DNA of 64,000 nt. Origin: Candidatus Zixiibacteriota bacterium. Lineage in GTDB: Bacteria > Zixibacteria > MSB-5A5 > GN15 > FEB-12. Location of the stretch: positions 1 through 64,000 of the forward strand of contig JBFMDV010000027.1 in the NCBI GenBank assembly GCA_040753875.1, written 5' to 3'. Position numbers and translations under genes: made by a program. The notes beneath the pieces are model-generated. The model did no database searches, was not told the DNA's origin, and worked only from the letters and a program-made list of their open reading frames with translations. Below are positions 1 through 37,769 of this stretch, one piece after another (the stretch's first letter is position 1; each line of letters begins with the position of its first letter).

Positions 1-205
1 GATGGTGACGAAGGTTCTGGAGGGTGTGAAGTTCACAGACGGGATTGAGGACAGGAACACGAAAAACAATCAGATCGAAAAGCACGCTGCTTGAAAATCA
101 AATTTACACAACTCTTGACATGAGCTCTTATCCGAATACTTATATGGCACTGCGGATTACGTAACATTTGACAGATTCTATACTGCCTCCTTTGCTGGCG
201 CTAAT

Positions 206-511
206 GTGGCGGCGGCTGTAGCACCGACGCCGTTTGGGAAGACAAGTGCATTGAAAGGAACGCTTCAGTTAACAAGCAGGGCCCGTAGCGTCGATCGCGT
301 CCTGAAGTTAGCGCCGAGGTGGCTGGGAAAGGGTTATACCGAGATCAGTCCGGGTGTGTACAGATCCGCAAGCGGACTGAGAGGATTTCGGATGACGAGT
401 TCTGATTTGCTTGGAAGAGGTCTAGGCGGAGTTTCGCATGTGCATTTTGAGACCTATTTGACAGCAGGGGCAAGGTATGCCTACAAGAATTTCCATGTGG
501 CCATCTACTGA
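206..511 (+). CDS. orphan polymorphic-toxin C-terminal cassette 1 (5'-truncated; frame open from 95)
   Basis: Shares an N-terminal junction motif (N/D)VA-A-(V/I)-(A/T)-PTPFGK..A.KG with a second segment at 729..1136, after which the two sequences diverge. Starts with GTG at 206 and has no convincing RBS. Lies in an AT-richer island. Confidence 0.35.
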   Translation: MAAAVAPTPFGKTSALKGTLQLTSRARSVDRVLKLAPRWLGKGYTEISPGVYRSASGLRGFRMTSSDLLGRGLGGVSHVHFETYLTAGARYAYKNFHVAIY

Positions 512-520
512 GGTGGTACG

Positions 521-793
521 ATGAGTACCCGCCATGTTGCGAACGTGCCAATTGACTTCCAGAAGGATGGGATAGCCCAATTGCTCATGGAAGTGATGGA
601 GGCGACTGACAAGGACCGAGGCGCTTTCTTGTATTACCTTCTTGCTGATGGTGGCACCAACGGCTTTGACGATTGGTTTCCCGACAGACAAACGCTTGAG
701 GAAGTGGCCCTCGAATTATACGGGGTAGACCCCAAGTCTTGGAAAGAGTTTAGAGGGCCGTTTCCTGGCTATACCGGAGGGAGGAATCGATAG
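521..793 (+). CDS. small acidic protein, candidate immunity protein for cassette 1
   Basis: 90-aa ORF beginning 10 nt after cassette 1, on the same strand. It is acidic and cytoplasmic-like. The immunity role rests on position only. Confidence 0.3.
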   Translation: MSTRHVANVPIDFQKDGIAQLLMEVMEATDKDRGAFLYYLLADGGTNGFDDWFPDRQTLEEVALELYGVDPKSWKEFRGPFPGYTGGRNR

Positions 794-911
794 TGCCCAA
801 TCACCGCGCCCATTCGTCGCGAGGATTGAGAGGAATCCAACGAGCATAGGCGATGTAGCGCTTGCTATCACACCCACACCGTTTGGAAAGGCCGGAGCTG
901 CAAAGGGGCTG

Positions 912-1136
912 ATGACGCCAGCGAAATTCTTTGGGGCTAAGACATTTGCTGAAATGAAATCACTTCTAAATGCCAAGTATGGTGCTGCTGTCTTTGAAAA
1001 TAACAGATTCGCGAACTTTGTTACACCTCGTGGGCGTGTATTTCATTTACATATGGATCAATTTCATGCGCCTCACATTACGTCCTATATGAAAGGATTC
1101 AGCGAAAACGCGAAGACATACTTTCTTGCATATTGA
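912..1136 (+). CDS. orphan polymorphic-toxin C-terminal cassette 2 (5'-truncated; frame open from 729)
   Basis: In-frame translation upstream of the called ATG reads ...GDVALAITPTPFGKAGAAKGLMTPAKFFG. About 12 of 20 residues match the cassette-1 junction, and the C-terminus is divergent. Confidence 0.35.
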   Translation: MTPAKFFGAKTFAEMKSLLNAKYGAAVFENNRFANFVTPRGRVFHLHMDQFHAPHITSYMKGFSENAKTYFLAY

Positions 1137-1443
1137 GGTTCAAATGAAGAAAATGAGAGTCCTCATCAAGGGCGCTAATGCCGACCTGAATTACTTGATT
1201 GAACAGATAGAGCTTGCGCGTTCACTCAGTTGGAAGGAAACTAATGAGATAGCGTACTATCATCATTGTATGATCTGTGGCTACACGTTCAACCCAAACG
1301 ACACATCACAGAAATACCACGCAGGTTCTTCGAGCTCACGGGCTTGGCTCGATCCAGACTGTTACCAACGGTTTATCGTTGCAGATGGGATTCCGGATTT
1401 ACTGGATAAAGCTTTTGAAGTAGACGAAGAATCGACAATGTAG
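1126..1443 (+). CDS. small protein, candidate immunity protein for cassette 2
   Basis: 105-aa ORF overlapping the cassette-2 stop by 11 nt, on the same strand. The immunity role rests on position only. Confidence 0.3.
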   Translation: MHIEVQMKKMRVLIKGANADLNYLIEQIELARSLSWKETNEIAYYHHCMICGYTFNPNDTSQKYHAGSSSSRAWLDPDCYQRFIVADGIPDLLDKAFEVDEESTM

Positions 1444-1965
1444 TCAAAATCGCAGCCTTGAGCGAGTAAGTGAGTGGTAGCCCGTAGCACATCTGCAATG
1501 ATGTTTGTCAAGGGCTGTGGTAAGCGTGGCATTCCTTATGACAACGGTGTCCTCCTTGCCACTTTCGACCAAAGGGACAGCGTGAAAAAGCTCTGCACAT
1601 CACGAGGCGATTCCGTGTCGTGACATATGATCATGGTCATCGGTGGGAAGACAACATTCTCCTCCGCAACCGCATCGGTGTGATAGCAGACCATCGCTAC
1701 TGTGGCAATGAGACGATACAACCATATCAGATTCCCTGTTCGTACGAGCGAAAGTATAATGCGTAATCGTGTATCCATCACGGGATTGAGTGCCACCTGC
1801 TTCATTTCTCCTTTCGAGCTGTGGATCCATATAAGAGGACCAGGTATGCACAAGTCTAAACCTCTGGCGAGTGAATTTCACTTGTGATTGCTACCTCATA
1901 TCAAGTCAATCGGACACAGTAGCTCTTGGCGAGTGCCCAGTCAGTGAGCTTAGTGATTACCACCA

Positions 1966-2451
1966 TCACGACAACCAACAGACAAGGCGACTAGCGAACT
2001 CCAATAGGGCAACAATCGGCAGTCCCATTAACAGGTACCGACCACCTTTAACCCGAGGGAAGAACCGCTCGTACTCGTGTGACCCTGGGATCAGATTGCC
2101 ACGGAGGAAAGACGGCCAGAAGATCCTCTGTGCGTCAACCGCAGCCGACAAACCCATAACTCCTAAGGTGACCATCCACAATATAACTACTCCATACTGT
2201 ATCTTCTGACTGCACATATACACTCCGAAAACATCCCTCAATCCGACACAACGAATAAGAACGTATAGGGTCGGAATATACATGCCCAAGATGATCTTGC
2301 TGCGTAGCGCCCTGAGTTCGAGGATTCTTTTAGTCACCCGAGTCTCACCAAGAAAACCACTCAAAGTAGAAGTCGAAACCGAAGCTAATCGATGGCGCGC
2401 CAATACTAAATCCTGCTCCACCTCCGCCGCCAAAATCACCGTAACCTCCAA
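1966..2451 (-). CDS. small hydrophobic membrane protein, candidate immunity protein for the Rhs C-terminal toxin (true start probably an internal Met near 2280)
   Basis: Lies immediately downstream of the Rhs C-terminal toxin on the same strand. Contains two or three predicted transmembrane helices. The N-terminal part of the ORF overlaps the toxin end, so the start is uncertain. Confidence 0.3.
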   Translation of the reverse strand: MEVTVILAAEVEQDLVLARHRLASVSTSTLSGFLGETRVTKRILELRALRSKIILGMYIPTLYVLIRCVGLRDVFGVYMCSQKIQYGVVILWMVTLGVMGLSAAVDAQRIFWPSFLRGNLIPGSHEYERFFPRVKGGRYLLMGLPIVALLEFASRLVCWLS

Positions 2452-3766
2452 CGCCGGAGACTATTCCTGTTGCCTGAAAGTCCAATATGACGCCAGCATC
2501 CTGGTCTGGGTTATAGTCTATAACAGACCCAACAGTCACTACTGGACTTGGCGCTCCGACACCGAACCCTAAGCCAAGATGCGCGACTACTTGATCGTCC
2601 TTTTGGTCTGAATGAGTCCAAGTCCCTCCAATGCTAAGACCGATACCGGCTACCCCCGGTGCTGGCCAAATCGGGATGACGACGCTCACGTCGATAAAGC
2701 CCTCCTTGGGAGAACTCTTCGCGGGAGGTTCGCTGCCGGGCGGTCCGAACCAGATTGGGTCTTCTTTGTGTTCCCATCGTCTGTTTCCGTCTATCGTAGT
2801 GACCGTGGGTGTACGCCAACGGCCCATCCCAATCATCGGATCATTGCCATCGTTCACGCCAATATCATGTATCCAATCGGAGTGGTCTTGGTTTGAGTAA
2901 GACATGCCGGTAGGATCGCGTTTCCATGGGTTCACCCACTTAAAATCACTCTGTCCGGGTCGCCTCGTTCCAGTATTTGTGCTCGTCCAAACGAAGTTCC
3001 TTCCCTCACCGCGACAATTCTGGTCATAGTAGTCCTGCTGGTTCTGTGCCTCAATCGCGGCATTCTCAGCCTTATTGAACTCGCGCCAATAGGCTCGAAT
3101 CTCCTCTTCCGTCGGTGGTGGCGGAATCGGGTAGGCCGTTGTAAGACCAGACGGATCATAGAGCATCACCGGATTCCCCTCAGCGTAGCTGTACGGCGAG
3201 GCTCCTGCCGGAATAGGGTCAGGAGCCAGGAACCGTCCCAGTTCTTTCCCGTAATACCGCGGGCCAAAGTCCAACTGTGCCGTCTTGTCCAACTCTTTCC
3301 CTATAAACTGCCGATAGGTTCGGTTCGCTCCTGATATCGAGTAAAACCCACCATACGGGTAGTACTCCCACATTGCACAGGCCGGTACCCCGGTTCCCCT
3401 GACCACTCCATGCACCGAGCCGAGATAGTCCGTTACCAGGACGTTCAATGAATCCAGCGCCAGCGTGTAGTCCCGCCGCGCCAATAGTCGACCGAGACCA
3501 TAGATGTTCACCTGGCTCACGGAAATCGGGTTGTCCAACTCCAGCACCACCTGCCCGCCGGACCAGATGTAATATCGCACTTCTTCGCGGTTCTGCCAAT
3601 ACCCGCCACCGCCGGGGCCGCTGAGACCTTCCACTTGGCTCCCACTAATCGCAAGCGCCGATTCGCCCCCCGGTAACAACCCTTCAGTCCCGCCACCACC
3701 CGTATCCGGAGGAATGTACACCTGATACCGGTAAATCTGCTTTACTTTTTCGCCGCTCGAATTCAA
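2345..3766 (-). CDS. Rhs/YD-repeat core C-terminal fragment fused to an unrecognised C-terminal toxin domain (orphan, 5'-truncated Rhs)
   Basis: Contains terminal YD repeats and the Rhs repeat-associated core (YYPYGG..., RQFIGKELDKTAQLDFGPRYYGKELGRFLAPDPI, then the hallmark DPSGL at aa 204-208). A 265-aa divergent C-terminal domain follows (nt 2345..3142), ending in a Gly- and aromatic-rich tail. Only 473 aa long, whereas a full Rhs protein exceeds 1000 aa. Confidence 0.7.
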   Translation of the reverse strand: MNSSGEKVKQIYRYQVYIPPDTGGGGTEGLLPGGESALAISGSQVEGLSGPGGGGYWQNREEVRYYIWSGGQVVLELDNPISVSQVNIYGLGRLLARRDYTLALDSLNVLVTDYLGSVHGVVRGTGVPACAMWEYYPYGGFYSISGANRTYRQFIGKELDKTAQLDFGPRYYGKELGRFLAPDPIPAGASPYSYAEGNPVMLYDPSGLTTAYPIPPPPTEEEIRAYWREFNKAENAAIEAQNQQDYYDQNCRGEGRNFVWTSTNTGTRRPGQSDFKWVNPWKRDPTGMSYSNQDHSDWIHDIGVNDGNDPMIGMGRWRTPTVTTIDGNRRWEHKEDPIWFGPPGSEPPAKSSPKEGFIDVSVVIPIWPAPGVAGIGLSIGGTWTHSDQKDDQVVAHLGLGFGVGAPSPVVTVGSVIDYNPDQDAGVILDFQATGIVSGVGGYGDFGGGGGAGFSIGAPSISFGFDFYFEWFSW

Positions 3767-3771
3767 ACTGT

Positions 3772-3895
3772 GCCGTCAGCCGTCTCTGGCTGACGGCTGC
3801 CTCAAGCACGACTGAAGTCGGGCAGAGACGCCCGACTTCACCGCCGCTTCGCGCGGCTACACCGTATACCCCGTATCCCACAGCGAGCTGTGGGG
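3772..3895. repeat. cluster of GC-rich hairpins (palindromic repeat family)
   Basis: Three hairpins: gccgtcagcc-gtctct-ggctgacggc at 3772..3797, gaagtcgggc-agagac-gcccgacttc at 3814..3839, and cccacag-cgag-ctgtggg at 3877..3895. The first two are the two stem variants GTC(A/G)GGC of one family and carry reverse-complementary loops. Confidence 0.6.
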
Positions 3896-3907
3896 CACCC
3901 GTCCGAA

Positions 3908-5443
3908 TTACACCGTGTACAACTCCGTGATCTCGTTGTTGTCGGAGGCGTTGTAGACTTTGAACAGTTCCTGCGACAACGTCGTGTCGCGGATCAGGTT
4001 GATCCGGAACTTGTTCGCTTTCATCACTCGGTCGATATGATTCGTCCCGTTCTCAGTCAGAAACGAGCCGAGATTCGGGTTCACGATCAAATGGAACTTG
4101 TCGAACTTCTTCGCTGCCCGCGCCCGCAAAAACCACCGCTCGATCTTGGTCGCCATGTTCTCCTTGGACATGATTCGCCCCGCTCCGGCACAGTGCGGAC
4201 ACGGTTCGGACAGCGTATGCATGTGCGAGGGGCGCACCCGCTCACGGGTCATCTCGATCAGCCCAAAGTCGGTCACCGGATTGATCGCCCGCTTGGCGCG
4301 GTCATGACGAAACGCGTTACGGAACTCATCGTATAGCCGACGGCGGTTCTCGCGGCTGTACATGTCGATGAAGTCGCAGATAATCAGCCCGCCGATATCG
4401 CGGAGCCGAATCTGCCGCGCGATCTCGCGCGCCGCCACGATGTTTGTCTCGAAAATCGTATGCTCCTGGTCGCGGCTCCCTACGAAGCGGCCAGTGTTGA
4501 CATCGATAGTAACCATCGCTTCGGTCTGATCAATGATGATATAGGCGCCCTTCTTGATCCAGACTTTCCGTGACAGCATCTTTTCGATCTCCGGCTCCAG
4601 TTGATGCTGGTCGAACAACGGCGCGGTCCCCTTGTACAGGTGAATCCGGTCTTTGAGGTGCGGCGTCACCTGGCGCGCGAAGGCGATGATCTTCTTGTAT
4701 GCCTCGCGGTCATCGATGAGAACGCGCTGGACGTCGTCGGTGAACACATCGCGGATCAACGAAGTCACCATCTCGGCCTCTTTGTGGATAAGCGCCGGGG
4801 CGGGCATGGTGTCCGCTTTCCGTTTCAGTTTCGCCCAGAGCTTGAGCAGACGCTTGATATCCGCCTTGAAATCATCTTCCTGCTTCCCCTCCGCTTCGGT
4901 GCGGATAATCAGCCCGAACCCCTCCGGCCGGAGCGGCGCGACGATCTTCTTGAGCCGTTTCTTCTCCCCCCAATCGGTGATTCGCTTGGATACATGCACA
5001 TGGTCGTCATCGGGGACAATCACGAGATACCGCCCGGGAATCGAAATCTCCGAGGCGACGCGCGGTCCCTTGGTGGAGATTGGCTCTTTGATCACCTGAA
5101 CCAGAATCTCCTGATTCCGTTTCAGAACGGTCTCGATCCCTTGACGGCGGGTCTTGCGCACGATCTCGGCCGGTGCTTCTTCTTCGACATCTTCGGAGTC
5201 GAACCGTCGGCTGTAATCCTTGCCGATATCGGAGGAGTGCAGATAGGCTGCTTTCTCCGTTCCGATTTCGACAAACGCCGCCTGCATACCGGGCAGGACC
5301 GTCTTGATTTTTGCTTTGTAGATGTCCCCCACCATGCGTTCGGTGTCGGGACGTTCCACCTGCAGCTCGACCAGCTTGTCATCCTCGAGGATGGCAAGAC
5401 GGGTTTCGTACTCGGTGGAATTGATAAGAATTTCTTTTTTCAC
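3908..5443 (-). CDS. rng: ribonuclease G/E family protein (Rng-like)
   Basis: S1 domain followed by an RNase E/G catalytic domain (DFGLIEMTRER, CPHCAGAGRI). 511 aa. Overlaps fmt by 4 nt. Confidence 0.85.
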   Translation of the reverse strand: MKKEILINSTEYETRLAILEDDKLVELQVERPDTERMVGDIYKAKIKTVLPGMQAAFVEIGTEKAAYLHSSDIGKDYSRRFDSEDVEEEAPAEIVRKTRRQGIETVLKRNQEILVQVIKEPISTKGPRVASEISIPGRYLVIVPDDDHVHVSKRITDWGEKKRLKKIVAPLRPEGFGLIIRTEAEGKQEDDFKADIKRLLKLWAKLKRKADTMPAPALIHKEAEMVTSLIRDVFTDDVQRVLIDDREAYKKIIAFARQVTPHLKDRIHLYKGTAPLFDQHQLEPEIEKMLSRKVWIKKGAYIIIDQTEAMVTIDVNTGRFVGSRDQEHTIFETNIVAAREIARQIRLRDIGGLIICDFIDMYSRENRRRLYDEFRNAFRHDRAKRAINPVTDFGLIEMTRERVRPSHMHTLSEPCPHCAGAGRIMSKENMATKIERWFLRARAAKKFDKFHLIVNPNLGSFLTENGTNHIDRVMKANKFRINLIRDTTLSQELFKVYNASDNNEITELYTV

Positions 5444-7496: not shown

Positions 7497-7980
7497 TCAG
7501 CGCACAGCGAAACTGCGGCAGGTCACACGACCCGCCTGTGGCTGGGTCGTATAGCGCGCCGTTCTCGGTCTGACGGCTCCGTGTATGTGACCAGGTGTCG
7601 GGCGGGGACGCCCGACACCACCACCCACCACGAGATTGTCATTCCCGCGCACGCGGGAATCCAGCCGAAGCCAATGCTCTGGATTCCCGTTTTCACGGGA
7701 ATGACACACCGACAATCCCGCCCCAAGGGGCGGGGTACCCCACCGTCATCGGCCTGATCATAGACGAAGGCTTGCAGTGTGAAGTGTTCAACTGTGCCGT
7801 CAGGCGTCCCCGCCTGACAGCCCTTTTCCAACAAAAATAGTGTCGGGCGGGGACGCCAGACACCACTATCGAAACCGCATCTGGTTTTGCCACAGTGCAC
7901 GTTGATGTCCTTCTCCCTTTTAGGGAGAAGGTGCCAAAGGCGCCGTCCCGAGCATAGTCGAGGGGGCGGATGAGGGTCTC
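7497..7980. repeat. about 480 bp intergenic train of distinct GC-rich hairpins and nested palindromes
   Basis: Hairpins at 7594..7619 (ggtgtcgggcg-ggga-cgcccgacacc), 7641..7660, 7683..7702, 7717..7734 (cccgcccc-aa-ggggcggg), 7797..7820 (ccgtcaggcg-tccc-cgcctgacag), 7840..7863 and 7909..7931. A nested palindrome gattgtcattccc...gggaatgaca..acaatc spans 7634..7712. No ORF with coding character. Confidence 0.6.
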
Positions 7981-8616
7981 ATGCGTTTCAGTATCCCCTT
8001 GACAATCACCGACTTCTTTCCCTTCTTTCGGGCAGGGTTTTATGGAGGAATCATTATGACGACTAAGACACGCACGCGCCGTTTGGGGCGGACATCGCTG
8101 CTCAGTGTTCTTGCGCTATTGGCGTTGCTGACTCACGCGCAGGCATTTGATGGAAAGCGGCAGGGCTTTGTTACTGGCATCGGCTTCGGAATGTGTCCGA
8201 TGTCTCACTGGGCAGCGGATAATTATCCGCGGGAAATGGCAGAAGCCGGGGTCGGCTTCAACGGCTTCTTTGGACTTGCTTGGGACGAACAGAATTTCTT
8301 GACGATTGGGATTAGCGGTAGCTATTACAACACGATAGAAGCAAGCTTTCAAGGCTTGAGCGCAATCTCCTGGTATCATTACTGGGGGCGGAAGAAGCCT
8401 TTTTTTACATTCGGCGGCGTAGGCATGTTGTCATTCTCTACTGGCTACTGGGTTGGCAATGGGCGCGGATTCGGGTACACAGCAGGAGCAGGGTACGAAG
8501 TAGTTCGACATGTTCAGGTGGGATTCTATTACATCGGCGGCCACACCGGCGCCAATTATTACAGCGACGTCAGTCACAGCGTGGTGAACCTGCTGGTGAC
8601 GGTGGTGGCGTATTAG
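7981..8616 (+). CDS. outer-membrane beta-barrel-like protein (start likely ATG 8056 with GGAGGA RBS)
   Basis: Signal peptide MTTKTRTRRLGRTSLLSVLALLALLTHAQA. Gly- and aromatic-rich alternating pattern and a C-terminal aromatic residue (VVAY). Confidence 0.4.
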   Translation: MRFSIPLTITDFFPFFRAGFYGGIIMTTKTRTRRLGRTSLLSVLALLALLTHAQAFDGKRQGFVTGIGFGMCPMSHWAADNYPREMAEAGVGFNGFFGLAWDEQNFLTIGISGSYYNTIEASFQGLSAISWYHYWGRKKPFFTFGGVGMLSFSTGYWVGNGRGFGYTAGAGYEVVRHVQVGFYYIGGHTGANYYSDVSHSVVNLLVTVVAY

Positions 8617-8808
8617 CAGGGCAGATTGTTTCGTAGCACACCCAACGGGTGATGATTTTCGGAGCGGCGCATAATGAACGTCGCAACGCATGACGCTTAG
8701 GTGATGACAGAGAAAGCAGAGCCCTTACGAATAATCCTCACCCGATGGGTGGGCTACAAACTTTGCGCTTTCGAGCGCTGATAGTCCATTCTGTAAAAGC
8801 AGCTTCAA

Positions 8809-9171
8809 GTGTCCCTGTCTACCACCCCCCTCGCCTTCAACGACTGCATCACGCGCCATGATCTTGAGGGACTCTCGGCGTTGATGACCGAGGACCACAC
8901 GTTCATCGACAGGGACAACAACACTGTCAAAGGCAAAGCCGCCATGACCAACGCGTGGCGGGAGTTCTTCAAGCAGTTCCCCGATTACAAGAATACGTTC
9001 ATGCGGGTCGAAGCGCGCGGCGACAAGGTTGTCATGATCGGGTATGCTACGTGGAGCAAGGGGGCAGAACCGGACCCGGCGATATGGGTCGCGAGAATCG
9101 AGAATGGGCTCGTGATGGAGTGGCGGATCTATTACGACACGGATGAGAATCGTAAGATGCTGGGGGTGTGA
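8809..9171 (+). CDS. NTF2-like/SnoaL-like domain protein
   Basis: 120 aa with the pattern of a ketosteroid isomerase/NTF2 fold (cone-shaped alpha+beta). Assigned by resemblance only. Confidence 0.45.
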   Translation: MSLSTTPLAFNDCITRHDLEGLSALMTEDHTFIDRDNNTVKGKAAMTNAWREFFKQFPDYKNTFMRVEARGDKVVMIGYATWSKGAEPDPAIWVARIENGLVMEWRIYYDTDENRKMLGV

Positions 9172-9268
9172 GATTCTTACTGGCGCCATCTCGGAGCGGG
9201 AAACGGCTGTCGGAAATACAGCAGCAATCGCGGAATTGGCTTGGGAAGTGTTGAAAAAAACCTAGCAA

Positions 9269-9420
9269 GTCATTGCGAGCCCCGTCGAAGGCGGGGCATG
9301 GCAATCTCTACCTTTTGTAAGCTACCCGATATCGAGATTGCTTCGTCGTCCGCCTGAGGCGGACTCCTCGCAATGACGACGGGGACCTTTTTCAACAGGC
9401 CCTTTCACGGGAATGACAAA
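9269..9420. repeat. MITE-like palindromic element
   Basis: An 11-bp terminal inverted repeat, gtcattgcgag at 9269..9279 and ctcgcaatgac at 9367..9377, encloses hairpins at 9279..9297 and 9348..9364. It is followed by cacgggaatgaca, a motif also present at about 7695. Confidence 0.5.
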
Positions 9421-9591
9421 TACAGCCTGGATCGCAATATGGCCAAACTAACTCGTTATATCACAACGAACTATCCGCGCCGAATGTGATTCCAATCAGC
9501 AGATTTCCGCTTGCGTCGCGGAATCATGGGCCGTAATTTACCGCTATTAACCGACGCAGAAAACTCTCACCAAACTTGCACGGAGGTACAG

Positions 9592-10191
9592 ATGAAGAAG
9601 TCATTGATGATTGTCGCCCTCATGGCCATGGCGTGTCTGATGGCGCTGCCGGCACTCGCCGAGGAACCGGCCAAGCCTTCCGGCGAACAGATGCAGATGC
9701 CCCCTATGGGTCCGCCGGAGGAAATGAAGCAGTTGGCGTTTCTCGAAGGGACATGGGATGTGGTCTCCAATTTCAACATCAGCATGGACCCAACCAAGGA
9801 ACAGTGGCAGGAATCCAAAGCGACCGCCGTTTACAGCTATATCGTCGACGGTGCAGCGATGCAGTGCGTGTACGATGGCGGCGCCGACATGATGCCCGGC
9901 ATGCCGCCGTTCAAAGGATTTATGCTGCAGGCCTATAACCGCGAGACCAAGAAGTGGCAGGCCACGTGGGTGGACAACATGAGTGGAAGTATCAGCTTGT
10001 ATACCGGGACGCACGACGCGGGCAAGTCGGTTCTTGAGGGTGAGGATATGATGGGTGGGCAGAAGTGGTGGACCCGGATGACGAGCTACGACGAAACTCC
10101 CGGCGCGTTCAAGTGGAAGATGGAAATGTCCATGGACGGCGGCAAGACATTCGTAACGAGCGGCACCGCAACGTACACGAAGCGCAAATAG
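9592..10191 (+). CDS. secreted protein, DUF1579-like (lipocalin-like)
   Basis: GGAGG RBS 5 nt before ATG 9592. Signal peptide MKKSLMIVALMAMACLMALPALA. GTW...W.DN...DGGKT pattern. Confidence 0.4.
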   Translation: MKKSLMIVALMAMACLMALPALAEEPAKPSGEQMQMPPMGPPEEMKQLAFLEGTWDVVSNFNISMDPTKEQWQESKATAVYSYIVDGAAMQCVYDGGADMMPGMPPFKGFMLQAYNRETKKWQATWVDNMSGSISLYTGTHDAGKSVLEGEDMMGGQKWWTRMTSYDETPGAFKWKMEMSMDGGKTFVTSGTATYTKRK

Positions 10192-10263
10192 CCGAAGATC
10201 GCGATGTGGAGATGAAAGGCCGTGTGGACATCACACGGCCTTTTTCGCTGCAATAGTCTGGTT

Positions 10264-13200
10264 TCATCCCACTTTCCCCAGCACGCCTCTCAGATGACTC
10301 AGTCGGTCCTGCTCGGCGATTGCCATCAGGTTGATCGTGATCCTTGGCTGACCGGTGAGAGAGAACTCCATCGGGCAGTCGGTCCCGCGGCGGAATGATT
10401 CAACCTCATTCCGAGTCAGTCGTCTGGCCTCCAGGAACAGGATTGTAGCGACGCCGGAACGCAGGCGCACTTTTTCAACCTCCAGGAGCGCTGCGGCAAT
10501 TTTCACAGCCGTAGCATCGAACAGATACACTGCCGATTGCGGCGGACGACCAAACCGGTCGGTTACCTCATCGCGAATCTTCTCGACTTCATCGAGGTTC
10601 TTGCTGTCTGCCAGTCGCCGGTATATATCAACTTTCTGCTGACGGTCGTTGACGTAGTCATCGGGCAAATAGATCTCGACATCAAGTTCGAGCTTGGTGT
10701 CAGGGAGTCGAACGATCTCCTGCCCTTTCAACTCCGCGACTGCCTCTTCAAGCAGGCGGTTGTACAAGTCGAAGCCGACTTCCTCGATAAAGCCTGACTG
10801 GCGCGCACCCAGGATCGTACCGGCACCGCGTATTTCCAGATCGCGCATGGCCAGCGCAAAACCGGCCCCAAGGTCGGAGTGCGCCTCAAGGGCGCGGAGA
10901 CGCTTGATGGCATCCTGGGTCAGGAGTTTGACTGGCGGTGTGATGAGATAGGCATAGGCGCGACGCGCCGATCGCCCCACTCGCCCGCGTATCTGATACA
11001 GTTGTGCCAGCCCGAACCGGTCGGCGCGATTGATGATGATCGTGTTGGCGGACGGAATATCCAGGCCGGATTCGATGATCGAGGTACACAGGAGGACATC
11101 GTATCGTTTCGCCAGAAACGCCAGCATGATCCCTTCGAGCGAGCGCTCGTGCATCTGGCCATGTGCTACGGCAATCTCGACTTTGGGTAGGAGCTTCGAC
11201 AGGTAATGATGCATCGCTTCGATAGTCTGCACACGATTGTGCAGAAAGAACACCTGGCCACCGCGGTCGATCTCACGGCGAATGGCGGTTGCGATGATGG
11301 CTGGATCGAAATCGACGATCTCCGTGATGATGGGGAGTCGGTCTTTGGGCGAGGTGTTGATCAGGCTCATGTCGCGCGCTCCCATGAGCGACATCTGAAG
11401 AGTCCTCGGGATCGGCGTGGCGGTCATGGCCAGTGTGTCGACAGAGGCTTTCAACTGGCGAAGCTTCTCCTTGTGCTTGACACCGAACCGGTGTTCCTCG
11501 TCGATCACCAGCAGTCCCAGGTCTTTGAAATTGACATCGTCGGAAAGGAGCCGGTGGGTGCCGATGACCAGGTCGACTCTCCCATCGCCCAGGTCTTTGG
11601 CGGCCTGTGTCTGCTCGGATCGGGTGCGGAAACGGGACAGCATGGAGATCTTGAAGGGATACTCCCTGAGGCGGTCGGTGAAGGTGTTAAAATGCTGCTG
11701 GGCGAGAATGGTGGTGGGCACCAGCACCGCCACTTGCTTGCCGGCATCCATCGCCTTGAAGGCAGCGCGAATTGCCACTTCGGTCTTGCCATAGCCGACA
11801 TCGCCGCACACCAGGCGGTCCATGGGGCGTTCTTCCGCCATGTCCCGCTTGACATCATCGATAGCTTTCTGTTGATCCGGCGTCTCGTCGTATGGAAACG
11901 AGGCCTCCAGTTGTTTGAGCCAGACCGAATCCTCGCCGAACGCACAGCCACTGGCGGTTTTCCGCTCGGCGTACAGTTTTATCAGATCGGCCGCCATATC
12001 GGCAATCGCCTTCTTGGTCTTCTCCTTCAGTTTCTCCCATCCCGGACCACCGAGCTTAGTGAGTGAAGGAGCCGAGTCCTTACCCGAATATTTTGAGACC
12101 CGATTGAACTCCTCGATCGGGACATAGAGCCGGTCGGTGCCATCGTACTGAAGCAGCAGGCAGTCGCGGTGGCGGCCGTCGACATGGAGCGTGGTGAGCC
12201 CAAGGTACCGCGCGATACCAAAATCGGTGTGGACGACGAAGTCTCCCTGGTTGAGACTCGAATAATCCGTGATGGCCACGCCTTCTCTGAACCGTTTTTT
12301 CCGAATGCGGCGGTGATACCGGCTGAACAGTTCGTGGTCCGTGAGGATGGCAACGCCGGCATCGCGACACTCGAACCCGCCGCGGAGATTGGCGACCTCG
12401 ATAACGGGCCGGTGTTCGCTGGGAACTTTCTCGGCGATCAATTCGCTCAATCGGGAAGCCTGTCCCTCGTTGTCGGTGGCGAGGAAATAGGTCAGGCTGA
12501 GCTGGTCATATTCGGCGCAGGTTTTGCCGAGAAGGTCAAGTCGCGCATTGAGCGCCGGGTGGGGATGGCAGCCGAACGAGATAACTTCGCTCTTGCCGCC
12601 GCGAAACGGCACCTGGTCGATCACTTGATGCTGATCGAGCCGGGCGATCAGTTTGTCCGGCACGGTGTAGTATTCATCTGGCGCAGGGAGCCGGCTCAGG
12701 CGGCTTTTCAAGCGGTCCTGCAAAGCGTCGGCCTCGGCCATAATCGACTCGGCCTCGCTCCTGATCGACTCTTCGCCGAGCGTGATGATAAGACCGTTCT
12801 CCGGAAAATAGTCTAAGAGCGAACTCTGCTTGTGCCCGAACAAGAGCGACAGCCACTCCAGCCCGGGAAGCTCCGGATCGTTGAGGTAGCGCGAGCGAAT
12901 GTAATCGGCGTCTTCTTCAGGTAAGAGTCCAAGCTGTTCCTCGATCGATTCCTGCGTGACAGCGACTTCGCGCTTGGGCAGTATCTGGACGCGTTGAATC
13001 TGAGCCAGCGTCCGCTGGCTGCCGACATCGAACTCACGGATGGTATCGATCTCGTCACCATAAAACTCAATGCGCACGGGAGCGGAGGAACCGGGGGTGA
13101 AGAAATCGATCAACCCGCCGCGTCGGGCAAAGTCCCCCACTTCTTCAACGACCGATACGCGATGAAATCCGAGACGGACCAGCCGCTCGGTCAATTCGTC

Positions 13201-37668: not shown

Positions 37669-37735
37669 GTGTCGGGCGTCCTCGCCCGACACGCGATCCG
37701 CCTCGCAGAAGCCGTCAGGCGGGGACGCCTGACGG
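37669..37735. repeat. pair of palindromic hairpins (one of each stem variant)
   Basis: gtgtcgggcg-tcct-cgcccgacac at 37669..37692 and ccgtcaggcg-ggga-cgcctgacgg at 37712..37735. Near-identical to the copies at about 7600, 7800 and 3800. Confidence 0.6.
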
Positions 37736-37769
37736 CACAGCGACTCGACAGTATCACTTGGTGGCACGG

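Follow-up and report, generated by a model that had tools for sequence, protein, structure and literature searches.

Orphan rhs modules of Enterobacteria, such as those of Salmonella Typhimurium LT2, consist of a 3′ piece of the Rhs core, a variable toxin end and a small downstream gene (PMC3967940, PMC3150448). These fragments carry no initiation or export signals and become active once they have recombined with a main rhs gene (PMC3967940), and their immunity genes protect against the cognate toxin (PMC3967940, PMC3150448). A second point of comparison is Tse5 (PA2684) of Pseudomonas aeruginosa. Tse5-CT, the toxin at the C-terminal end of this protein, is an Rhs-encapsulated pore-forming toxin that is neutralised by Tsi5, a protein with two transmembrane segments (PMC9637101, PMC10684867). 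The C-terminal self-cleaving aspartyl protease of Tse5 contains the conserved aspartates D1141 and D1164 (PMC10684867). Here we describe a locus at the left end of contig JBFMDV010000027.1 from a metagenome-assembled genome (MAG) of an uncultured Candidatus Zixiibacteriota bacterium. Of the 73,083 bp of this contig 64 kb were analysed, and this stretch is called the window in the following. The minus-strand open reading frame (ORF) 2345..3766 of the window is a 5′-truncated fragment of an Rhs core with a C-terminal domain of its own. It is very probably an orphan Rhs cassette, with a small membrane ORF downstream of it as the candidate immunity gene. This is a known kind of system, and ORFan toxin ends are common among polymorphic toxins. 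The locus comprises the following features (coordinates are those of the window, aa numbers those of the 473-aa product of the Rhs ORF):

3143..3766, minus strand: remnant of the Rhs shell (aa 1-208) with the last YD-type repeats and the Rhs-associated core including D183 and D204, recognised by TIGR03696, PDB sequences, alignments and tblastn
3143..3157, minus strand: DPSGL motif (aa 204-208), where autoproteolytic cleavage is predicted and beyond which relatives cannot be aligned
2741..3142, minus strand: hydrophilic N-terminal half of the C-terminal domain (aa 209-342), with a PPPP linker, the sole confidently predicted helix and a W/D/N-rich region
2348..2737, minus strand: Gly/aromatic-rich hydrophobic tail of the C-terminal domain (aa 344-473), delimited by composition and hydropathy and ending in FGFDFYFEWFSW
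1966..2283, minus strand: small membrane ORF, candidate immunity gene, of 105 aa from the ATG at 2283 or 83 aa from the ATG at 2217, with two transmembrane-like segments
3767..3907, no strand assigned: four hairpins of a dispersed palindromic repeat resembling repetitive extragenic palindromic (REP) elements, between the rng stop and the truncated Rhs frame, at the truncation boundary
206..1443, plus strand: convergent array of two core-less toxin-end cassettes (206..511 and about 843..1136), each followed by a small ORF (521..793 and 1144..1443)

The assignment of the N-terminal part of the ORF to the Rhs family is clear. The 473-aa product is identical to the NCBI entry MEW6051494.1, named 'RHS repeat-associated core domain-containing protein'. 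Its residues 135-208 are recognised by NCBIfam TIGR03696 (Rhs_assc_core) with an E value of 5e-16 and 59 bits, the cut-off being 32.5. Among the PDB sequences, 17 solved chains of Rhs and Tc-toxin proteins (TccC3, YenC2, Tse5, the mosquito SGS1 and others) match aa 104-211, and all 17 alignments end at the cleavage motif (aa 207-211). For Tse5, the Rhs core covers aa 154-208 of the ORF product. The segment from aa 5 (GEKVKQ) to DPSGL can be aligned with long Rhs proteins at identities from 46% up to 58%, with 53% for the protein of locus L007 and 46% for that of locus L003. The aspartates D183, within GRFLAPDP, and D204, within DPSGL, are invariant in both alignments constructed (A1 and A2). 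As the PDB matches end at the cleavage site, we infer that D183 and D204 are the equivalents of the Tse5 protease aspartates. The alignment with six relatives collapses past DPxG(L/M)..PPPP, which places the start of the variable domain right after the cleavage motif. An earlier note on this DNA had described a 473-aa ORF with terminal YD repeats and an Rhs core ending in DPSGL at aa 204-208, and the searches agree with it in full.

That note had also regarded the gene as far too short for a complete Rhs protein, and this is correct. A complete protein would have a YD-repeat shell of more than 1000 aa, a plug at the N-terminus and a domain for secretion or delivery, and only 208 core residues are found here. 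Homology begins at aa 5 and corresponds to the region of residues 1311-1463 in the full-length, 1770-aa Rhs protein of L007 (Ga0224509_10000014). When this protein was used as a tblastn query, these residues mapped to 3598..3143 as the sole match in the window. About 1300 residues of shell, the signal peptide or leader, and the plug are missing in comparison to full-length relatives. The note had conceded that the ORF might belong to an intact longer Rhs gene broken by a sequencing frameshift. This is ruled out by the start of homology at aa 5, by an in-frame stop that precedes the nominal TTG start at 3766 by three codons, and by the sequence beyond, where 141 nucleotides of hairpins are followed by the end of rng at 3908 and leave no room upstream for the missing residues. 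Furthermore, neither the rest of the shell nor another rhs gene was found in the window. A scan of GTDB representatives with the full 473-aa protein returned no close relative.

The TTG at 3766 is merely the first possible start codon after the upstream stop. Inspection by eye showed no Shine-Dalgarno-like sequence ahead of it, and the 473-aa product has no signal peptide. The ORF thus keeps the core and lacks initiation and export signals of its own, and the cassette is probably silent. The first in-frame ATG is found at aa 132 and another at aa 201. Expression from such an internal start, with the toxin acting inside the producer as part of a toxin-antitoxin-like pair, is an alternative for which there is precedent, since main and orphan rhs genes of Salmonella have internal promoters and toxic internal translation products (PMC7043789). 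The sole promoter-like consensus match on the minus strand, a hexamer pair at 3599..3571, is indeed located within the ORF instead of upstream. Promoter-like matches are, however, no more frequent than in shuffled sequence (2 found versus 3.4 expected), neither ATG is preceded by an evident ribosome-binding sequence, and a hydrophobic, membrane-directed payload in the cytoplasm would require very tight control. We therefore consider internal expression very improbable.

The 141 nucleotides between the Rhs ORF and the rng stop codon fold into four hairpins (z=-5.7). This cluster marks the truncation boundary and probably terminates rng transcription. The palindromes on the 5′ side of the gene had been noticed before and read as consistent with displacement by recombination; the cluster is real, but by itself it is no evidence for this. 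The repeat, family D2, begins at nucleotide 3766, which is also where the nominal start codon begins, and its units recur at about 7590-7620 and 7790-7820 (within approximately 7560-7870) and at about 37710-37740. Since they are units of a dispersed REP-like repeat, the hairpins provide no specific evidence for Rhs recombination, and their role as an Rhs-specific recombination signal was rejected. The repeat consists of GC-rich palindromic hairpins in intergenic regions, and the 5′ limit of the Rhs homology coincides with it at 3766. No Rfam family and no tRNA was found in the window.

The locus thus resembles the enterobacterial orphan modules in its 3′ core piece, variable toxin end and small downstream gene, in the lack of initiation and export signals, and in its position in a low-GC island with other toxin-end cassettes. 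Unlike these modules, it does not follow a main rhs gene in the same orientation. Its upstream neighbours are the REP-like hairpins and rng (3908..5443), and its orientation relative to the other cassettes is convergent. The host is an uncultured member of the Zixibacteria, whereas the described orphan rhs genes are from Enterobacteria.

Closer relatives are found among other environmental sequences, where the nearest cores sit in short, orphan-type ORFs. One of them, P0003, belongs to a Zixibacteria MAG; its toxin end is colicin-M-like (PF14859; NCBI name 'lipid II-degrading bacteriocin'). P0004, at locus L002, ends in a VanY-like peptidase, P0005 has no recognised family at its toxin end, and the unrecognised end of P0002 finishes in clearly hydrophobic Gly/Ala-rich segments. 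Three tandem orphan modules of core and toxin are present at 8412..12473 of the 1.6-Mb contig L001 from a Zixibacteria MAG (CAVTJJ010000004). They are interleaved with small membrane ORFs, the junctions of the first and third are near-identical, and no full-length rhs gene lies within 10 kb of the array. L002 carries one module of core and C-terminal domain, likewise without a nearby main rhs gene. Small ORFs with two to four transmembrane-like segments directly follow modules in L001 (9230..9478 and 11048..11470), L087 (1125..1337) and L003 (2126..2500). The sister modules (P0003, P0005, the L001 array and L002) belong to the same core subfamily as the window module, with 62-75% identity over the last 55-75 core residues, and share with it the DPxG(L/M)..PPPP junction and the short orphan format. 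They differ from it in their toxin ends, which are unrelated, and in the length of core kept, which is about 70-130 residues versus 208 here.

The full-length relative L007 differs from the described orphan rhs systems of Enterobacteria in having a Sec-type, signal-peptide-like N-terminus with a DUF6531 domain. No PAAR domain was detected in this protein. Its C-terminal end (4580..5395 of L007) is formed by about 17 tandem copies of a unit of approximately 13 residues, 'DQGS(Y/L)P(F/V)xD..IG', an unusual repetitive payload. A second rhs gene appears to begin about 0.5 kb downstream.

The C-terminal domain of the window module comprises 265 aa. The earlier note had placed it at 2345..3142 and quoted its tail correctly; the coding part is 2348..3142, and 2345..2347 is the stop codon. 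The statement that the domain matches nothing nameable was confirmed at every level searched. No relative was found in a word-indexed search of 5.8 billion clusters, and an exhaustive phmmer (HMMER) search of 1.84 billion representatives at 50% identity returned only MEW6051494.1 itself. Pfam, NCBIfam, PHROGs and PADLOC gave no family match, the PDB sequences gave no match at E<=10, and tblastn against plasmids and phages and against 86 related Rhs loci gave nothing. The domain thus falls in no described toxin-domain family.

The earlier note had itself named a low-complexity read-through without fold or conservation as an objection. Of 20,000 composition-preserving shuffles none kept the 265-codon frame open, so a chance opening of this length can be dismissed. 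In the core and the N-terminal half of the domain, none of the other five frames reaches the codon score of the annotated one. The first residues past the cleavage site, PIPPPP, match the DPxG(L/M)..(I/V)PPPP junction of the sister modules. From the open frame, the codon score of the N-terminal half and the shared junction we argue that the stretch codes or recently coded for protein. As there is no conservation to measure, a read-through retains some probability. The GC content at third codon positions is 0.50-0.58 in the C-terminal domain and the membrane ORF, compared to 0.69-0.76 in the neighbouring housekeeping genes, which fits a horizontally exchanged module.

Another possibility is that the whole locus is a dead relic, left by an old rearrangement or a REP-associated truncation, no longer able to recombine and with both the toxin and membrane ORFs drifting without function. 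The ORF has no credible start codon or upstream promoter, its lone promoter-like match lies inside the frame and occurs at shuffle frequency, and no rhs partner is present within 64 kb. The C-terminal domain and the membrane ORF are singletons among about 15 billion proteins, codon scores are weak, and the neighbouring plus-strand cassettes have already lost the core. On the other hand, all 473 codons are open, including the 265 of the C-terminal domain that no shuffle reproduced. The self-cleavage aspartates are conserved, as is the core, with up to 58% identity to a functional-looking Rhs protein. Known orphan cassettes are silent yet functional (PMC3967940), and toxin ends without homologues are common in polymorphic toxins and do not indicate decay. 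We regard a relic as unlikely and retain the orphan toxin/immunity cassette as the reading of the locus.

The two halves of the C-terminal domain differ in composition. The N-terminal half (aa 209-343) contains 35 charged residues and is high in W, N and D. The tail (aa 344-473) has 20% Gly, 10.8% Val and 7.7% Phe, and just three K or R residues. Its hydrophobic peaks at aa 357-380, 393-417 and 424-442 reach Kyte-Doolittle values of 1.05-1.6, and the Asp-rich turns SDQKDDQ and NPDQDAG lie between the hydrophobic stretches. The period-2, beta-like hydrophobic moment of the tail mostly exceeds the helical one, and the closing strand, FGFDFYFEWFSW, is aromatic. Two to three segments examined as possibly membrane-spanning have mean Kyte-Doolittle values of 1.3-1.6; eight GxxxG motifs occur, and the periodicity is of the beta type, not helical. 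The motif G(L/A)GF(G/S)(V/I)GAPS is present twice in the tail, and a test for an internal repeat gave a p of about 0.11, which is not significant. Within the tail, aa 354-430 are not of low complexity and alternate between hydrophobic strands and Asp-rich turns; the GGGGG and GYG parts are low-complexity.

Structure prediction, which the earlier note had recommended for aa 209-473, supplied the start of one helix and no usable model. AlphaFold2 with the single sequence gave a pLDDT (predicted local distance difference test) of about 38 for the whole domain and 37.5 for the tail alone. A helix is predicted at residues 12-43 of the domain, and only its start is confident: the block-mean pLDDT is 71-87 for residues 1-30 and about 52 by residue 40. 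Fold matches to models of such low pLDDT would be meaningless.

The toxin is possibly directed at the membrane or envelope, although we hold this with limited confidence. The suggestion is based on the last approximately 120 residues of the tail, which are Gly-rich, nearly uncharged, hydrophobic and beta-periodic, on the membrane protein encoded by the downstream gene, and on the sister modules, which carry envelope toxins and membrane ORFs. Tse5/Tsi5 shows a similar arrangement, namely an Rhs core ending in DPxGL, a non-enzymatic-looking hydrophobic C-terminal domain and a small downstream product with two predicted transmembrane segments. Tse5-CT and the domain described here have no sequence similarity, however. 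Tse5-CT is predicted to contain transmembrane and amphipathic helices, whereas the tail in the window displays beta-type periodicity and moderate hydrophobicity. Tse5 is also a complete protein delivered by the type VI secretion system, whereas the window module is a fragment.

A competing view of this mechanistic step, which leaves the cassette itself untouched, is that the toxin does not act on the membrane. The N-terminal half (aa 209-342) would then be a novel enzyme or binding domain, the tail an appendage that is flexible or of low complexity, and the membrane ORF either the immunity gene for a periplasmic enzyme or unrelated. The colicin-M-like and VanY-like ends of the sister modules are enzymatic envelope toxins whose immunity proteins could be membrane-anchored. 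The tail is just moderately hydrophobic, has the low-complexity GGGGG and GYG parts, and matches no glycine-zipper or pore-former effector family in PDB, Pfam or NCBIfam. Nevertheless, no enzyme family or recognisable catalytic motif was found in the N-terminal half, aa 354-430 are not low-complexity, and a tail of this type occurs in 1 other of 26 extracted related C-termini, that of L003, where a membrane ORF is also next to it. A non-membrane toxin appears to us rather unlikely.

The L003 locus (JBDRQZ010000630) deserves a separate comparison. Its core is among the three closest to that of the window, with 50% identity over aa 64-213. As in the window, the core is followed by an unannotated C-terminal domain, of about 308 aa, which ends in a Gly/aromatic tail (…GVGGYGRYSFVGKGCGGGKMVGAGAGFSTGIYLRWYPFGR) and has a membrane ORF next to it. 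Unlike in the window, the toxin gene is part of a long Rhs gene and not an orphan. No other of the 26 Rhs C-termini, which were extracted by script from the 86 related loci, ends in such a tail. The two tails share 41% identity over the 37 terminal residues. One comparison gave a BLASTP E value of 0.042, and composition-preserving shuffles scored as well in 12 of 3000 cases (shuffle p about 0.004-0.016). This is a hint only that the L003 tail may be a distant relative of the window tail. Homology over the whole C-terminal domain, to either L003 or P0002, is unsupported, and the weak terminal motif match to L003 is what is left. The region 78..3360 of L003 covers the 3′ end of the long Rhs gene with its 308-aa C-terminal domain, then a 124-aa membrane ORF and then a 265-aa ORF with a zinc ribbon and four transmembrane segments.

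Two other explanations of the tail were considered and rejected. For an outer-membrane beta-barrel, suggested by the aromatic strand at the end, the best match was Pfam YfaZ with E=0.12 and 12.5 bits at a cut-off of 23, and no confident barrel model was obtained. A sorting signal, such as a C-terminal domain of the type IX secretion system or a PEP-CTERM-like signal, gave no NCBIfam match, and the tail is without the basic cluster of such signals.

The membrane ORF downstream on the same strand, which the earlier note had proposed as a candidate immunity gene, is present as described. It runs from an ATG at 2283 or 2217 to the stop at 1966, so that it begins 61-127 nucleotides past the stop of the C-terminal domain, depending on the start codon. 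The ATG at 2217 is preceded by GGAG 5 nucleotides upstream. The ORF encodes two strongly hydrophobic segments of 19 residues each, with mean Kyte-Doolittle values of 2.14 and 1.88, and the annotated frame has the best codon score. Protein searches found no homologue. The balance tilts slightly towards this ORF being the immunity gene. By its numbering, the NCBI entry MEW6051493 is expected between 1443 and 2345, and no ORF or start variant tried matched an entry.

Taken together, the locus is probably an orphan cassette with a lineage-unique toxin domain of 265 residues and a presumptive two-helix membrane immunity protein. Several observations weigh against this explanation or parts of it. 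Neither the C-terminal domain nor the membrane ORF has any homologue, so nothing shows purifying selection on either of them; for the same reason the immunity role and the function of the domain are inferred. The 64-kb window contains no full-length rhs gene, and the upstream neighbour is rng instead of a main rhs. The start variants of the membrane ORF that were tried match no entry of the protein collection, and NCBI may not have annotated this ORF. Codon scores in the tail are barely over background, and one antisense frame scores -0.012 versus -0.035 for the annotated one. The hydrophobic peaks of the tail (Kyte-Doolittle 1.3-1.6) are under the values of typical transmembrane helices, and AlphaFold assigns a pLDDT of about 38 to both the domain and its tail. 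Finally, the likeness to the L003 tail is weak, was chosen post hoc and is not significant in HMMER.

We propose the following course of events. The 473-aa product would not be exportable alone, having no shell, no leader and no start of its own. For its deployment the core segment would first have to recombine with a complete rhs gene at another site of the genome, a route shown for the orphan rhs genes of Salmonella. Meanwhile the immunity gene would guard the cell against kin carrying the same toxin. The aspartates for the predicted self-cleavage at DPSGL, D183 and D204, are conserved in the fragment. The toxin would, most simply, insert into a membrane and permeabilise or depolarise it, checked by the membrane immunity protein in parallel to Tse5-CT and Tsi5. 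A further step, which is speculative and which we rate as improbable, would make aa 354-473 a small membrane-inserting module of the beta-hairpin or beta-barrel type with FGFDFYFEWFSW as its terminal aromatic strand. Such a beta-type pore-forming Rhs payload would be unlike the helical Tse5-CT, Tse4 and Ssp-type effectors, would exist in rudimentary form in the L003 Rhs protein, and would be neutralised by the small inner-membrane protein.

The locus documents an orphan Rhs system in the Zixibacteria, in a clade of Rhs proteins with a Sec-type leader whose identifiable payloads are envelope-directed. A full-text literature search found no paper mentioning both Zixibacteria and Rhs. Orphan Rhs cassettes are a well-described means by which bacteria store and exchange weapons, and the architecture adds little to this. 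Among about 15 billion predicted proteins the payload, in turn, is without a relative. Should it prove to be an active membrane toxin whose beta-rich tail inserts, the few pore-forming effectors that act between bacteria would gain a new fold.

The other toxin-end cassettes are located on the plus strand, convergent with the Rhs ORF as the earlier note had described. The first of them (206..511) matches the very C-terminal end of an L037 Rhs protein with 43% identity (E=1.4e-15), and it has the junction motif A(V/I)xPTPFGKxxAxKG in common with the second (about 843..1136). Judged by these sequence matches, the plus-strand array consists of Rhs toxin ends too. With these Rhs-derived cassettes, the first approximately 3.8 kb of the window represent a low-GC polymorphic-toxin island abutting rng. 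In the plus-strand array, too, the GC content, both overall and at third codon positions, falls below that of the housekeeping genes. The small ORFs 521..793 and 1144..1443 correspond to the NCBI entries MEW6051491 and MEW6051492, both hypothetical proteins, and Pfam has no family for any of the four plus-strand ORFs within 206..1443. Just upstream of the cassettes, 1..94 on the plus strand holds the 3′ end of an ORF cut by the left window edge (…VLEGVKFTDGIEDRNTKNNQIEKHAA*), for which Pfam gave no match. About 520 nucleotides between the convergent arrays (1444..1965) contain no convincing coding frame by codon score.

On the other side of the Rhs ORF, the housekeeping gene rng, which encodes an Rne/Rng-type ribonuclease, is followed by fmt, def and yajC-like ORFs. 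Further along, a 211-aa ORF on the plus strand (7981..8616) has a signal-peptide-like N-terminus, alternating strands rich in Gly and aromatic residues, and the terminus …VTVVAY. By these sequence features its product looks like a small outer-membrane beta-barrel protein.

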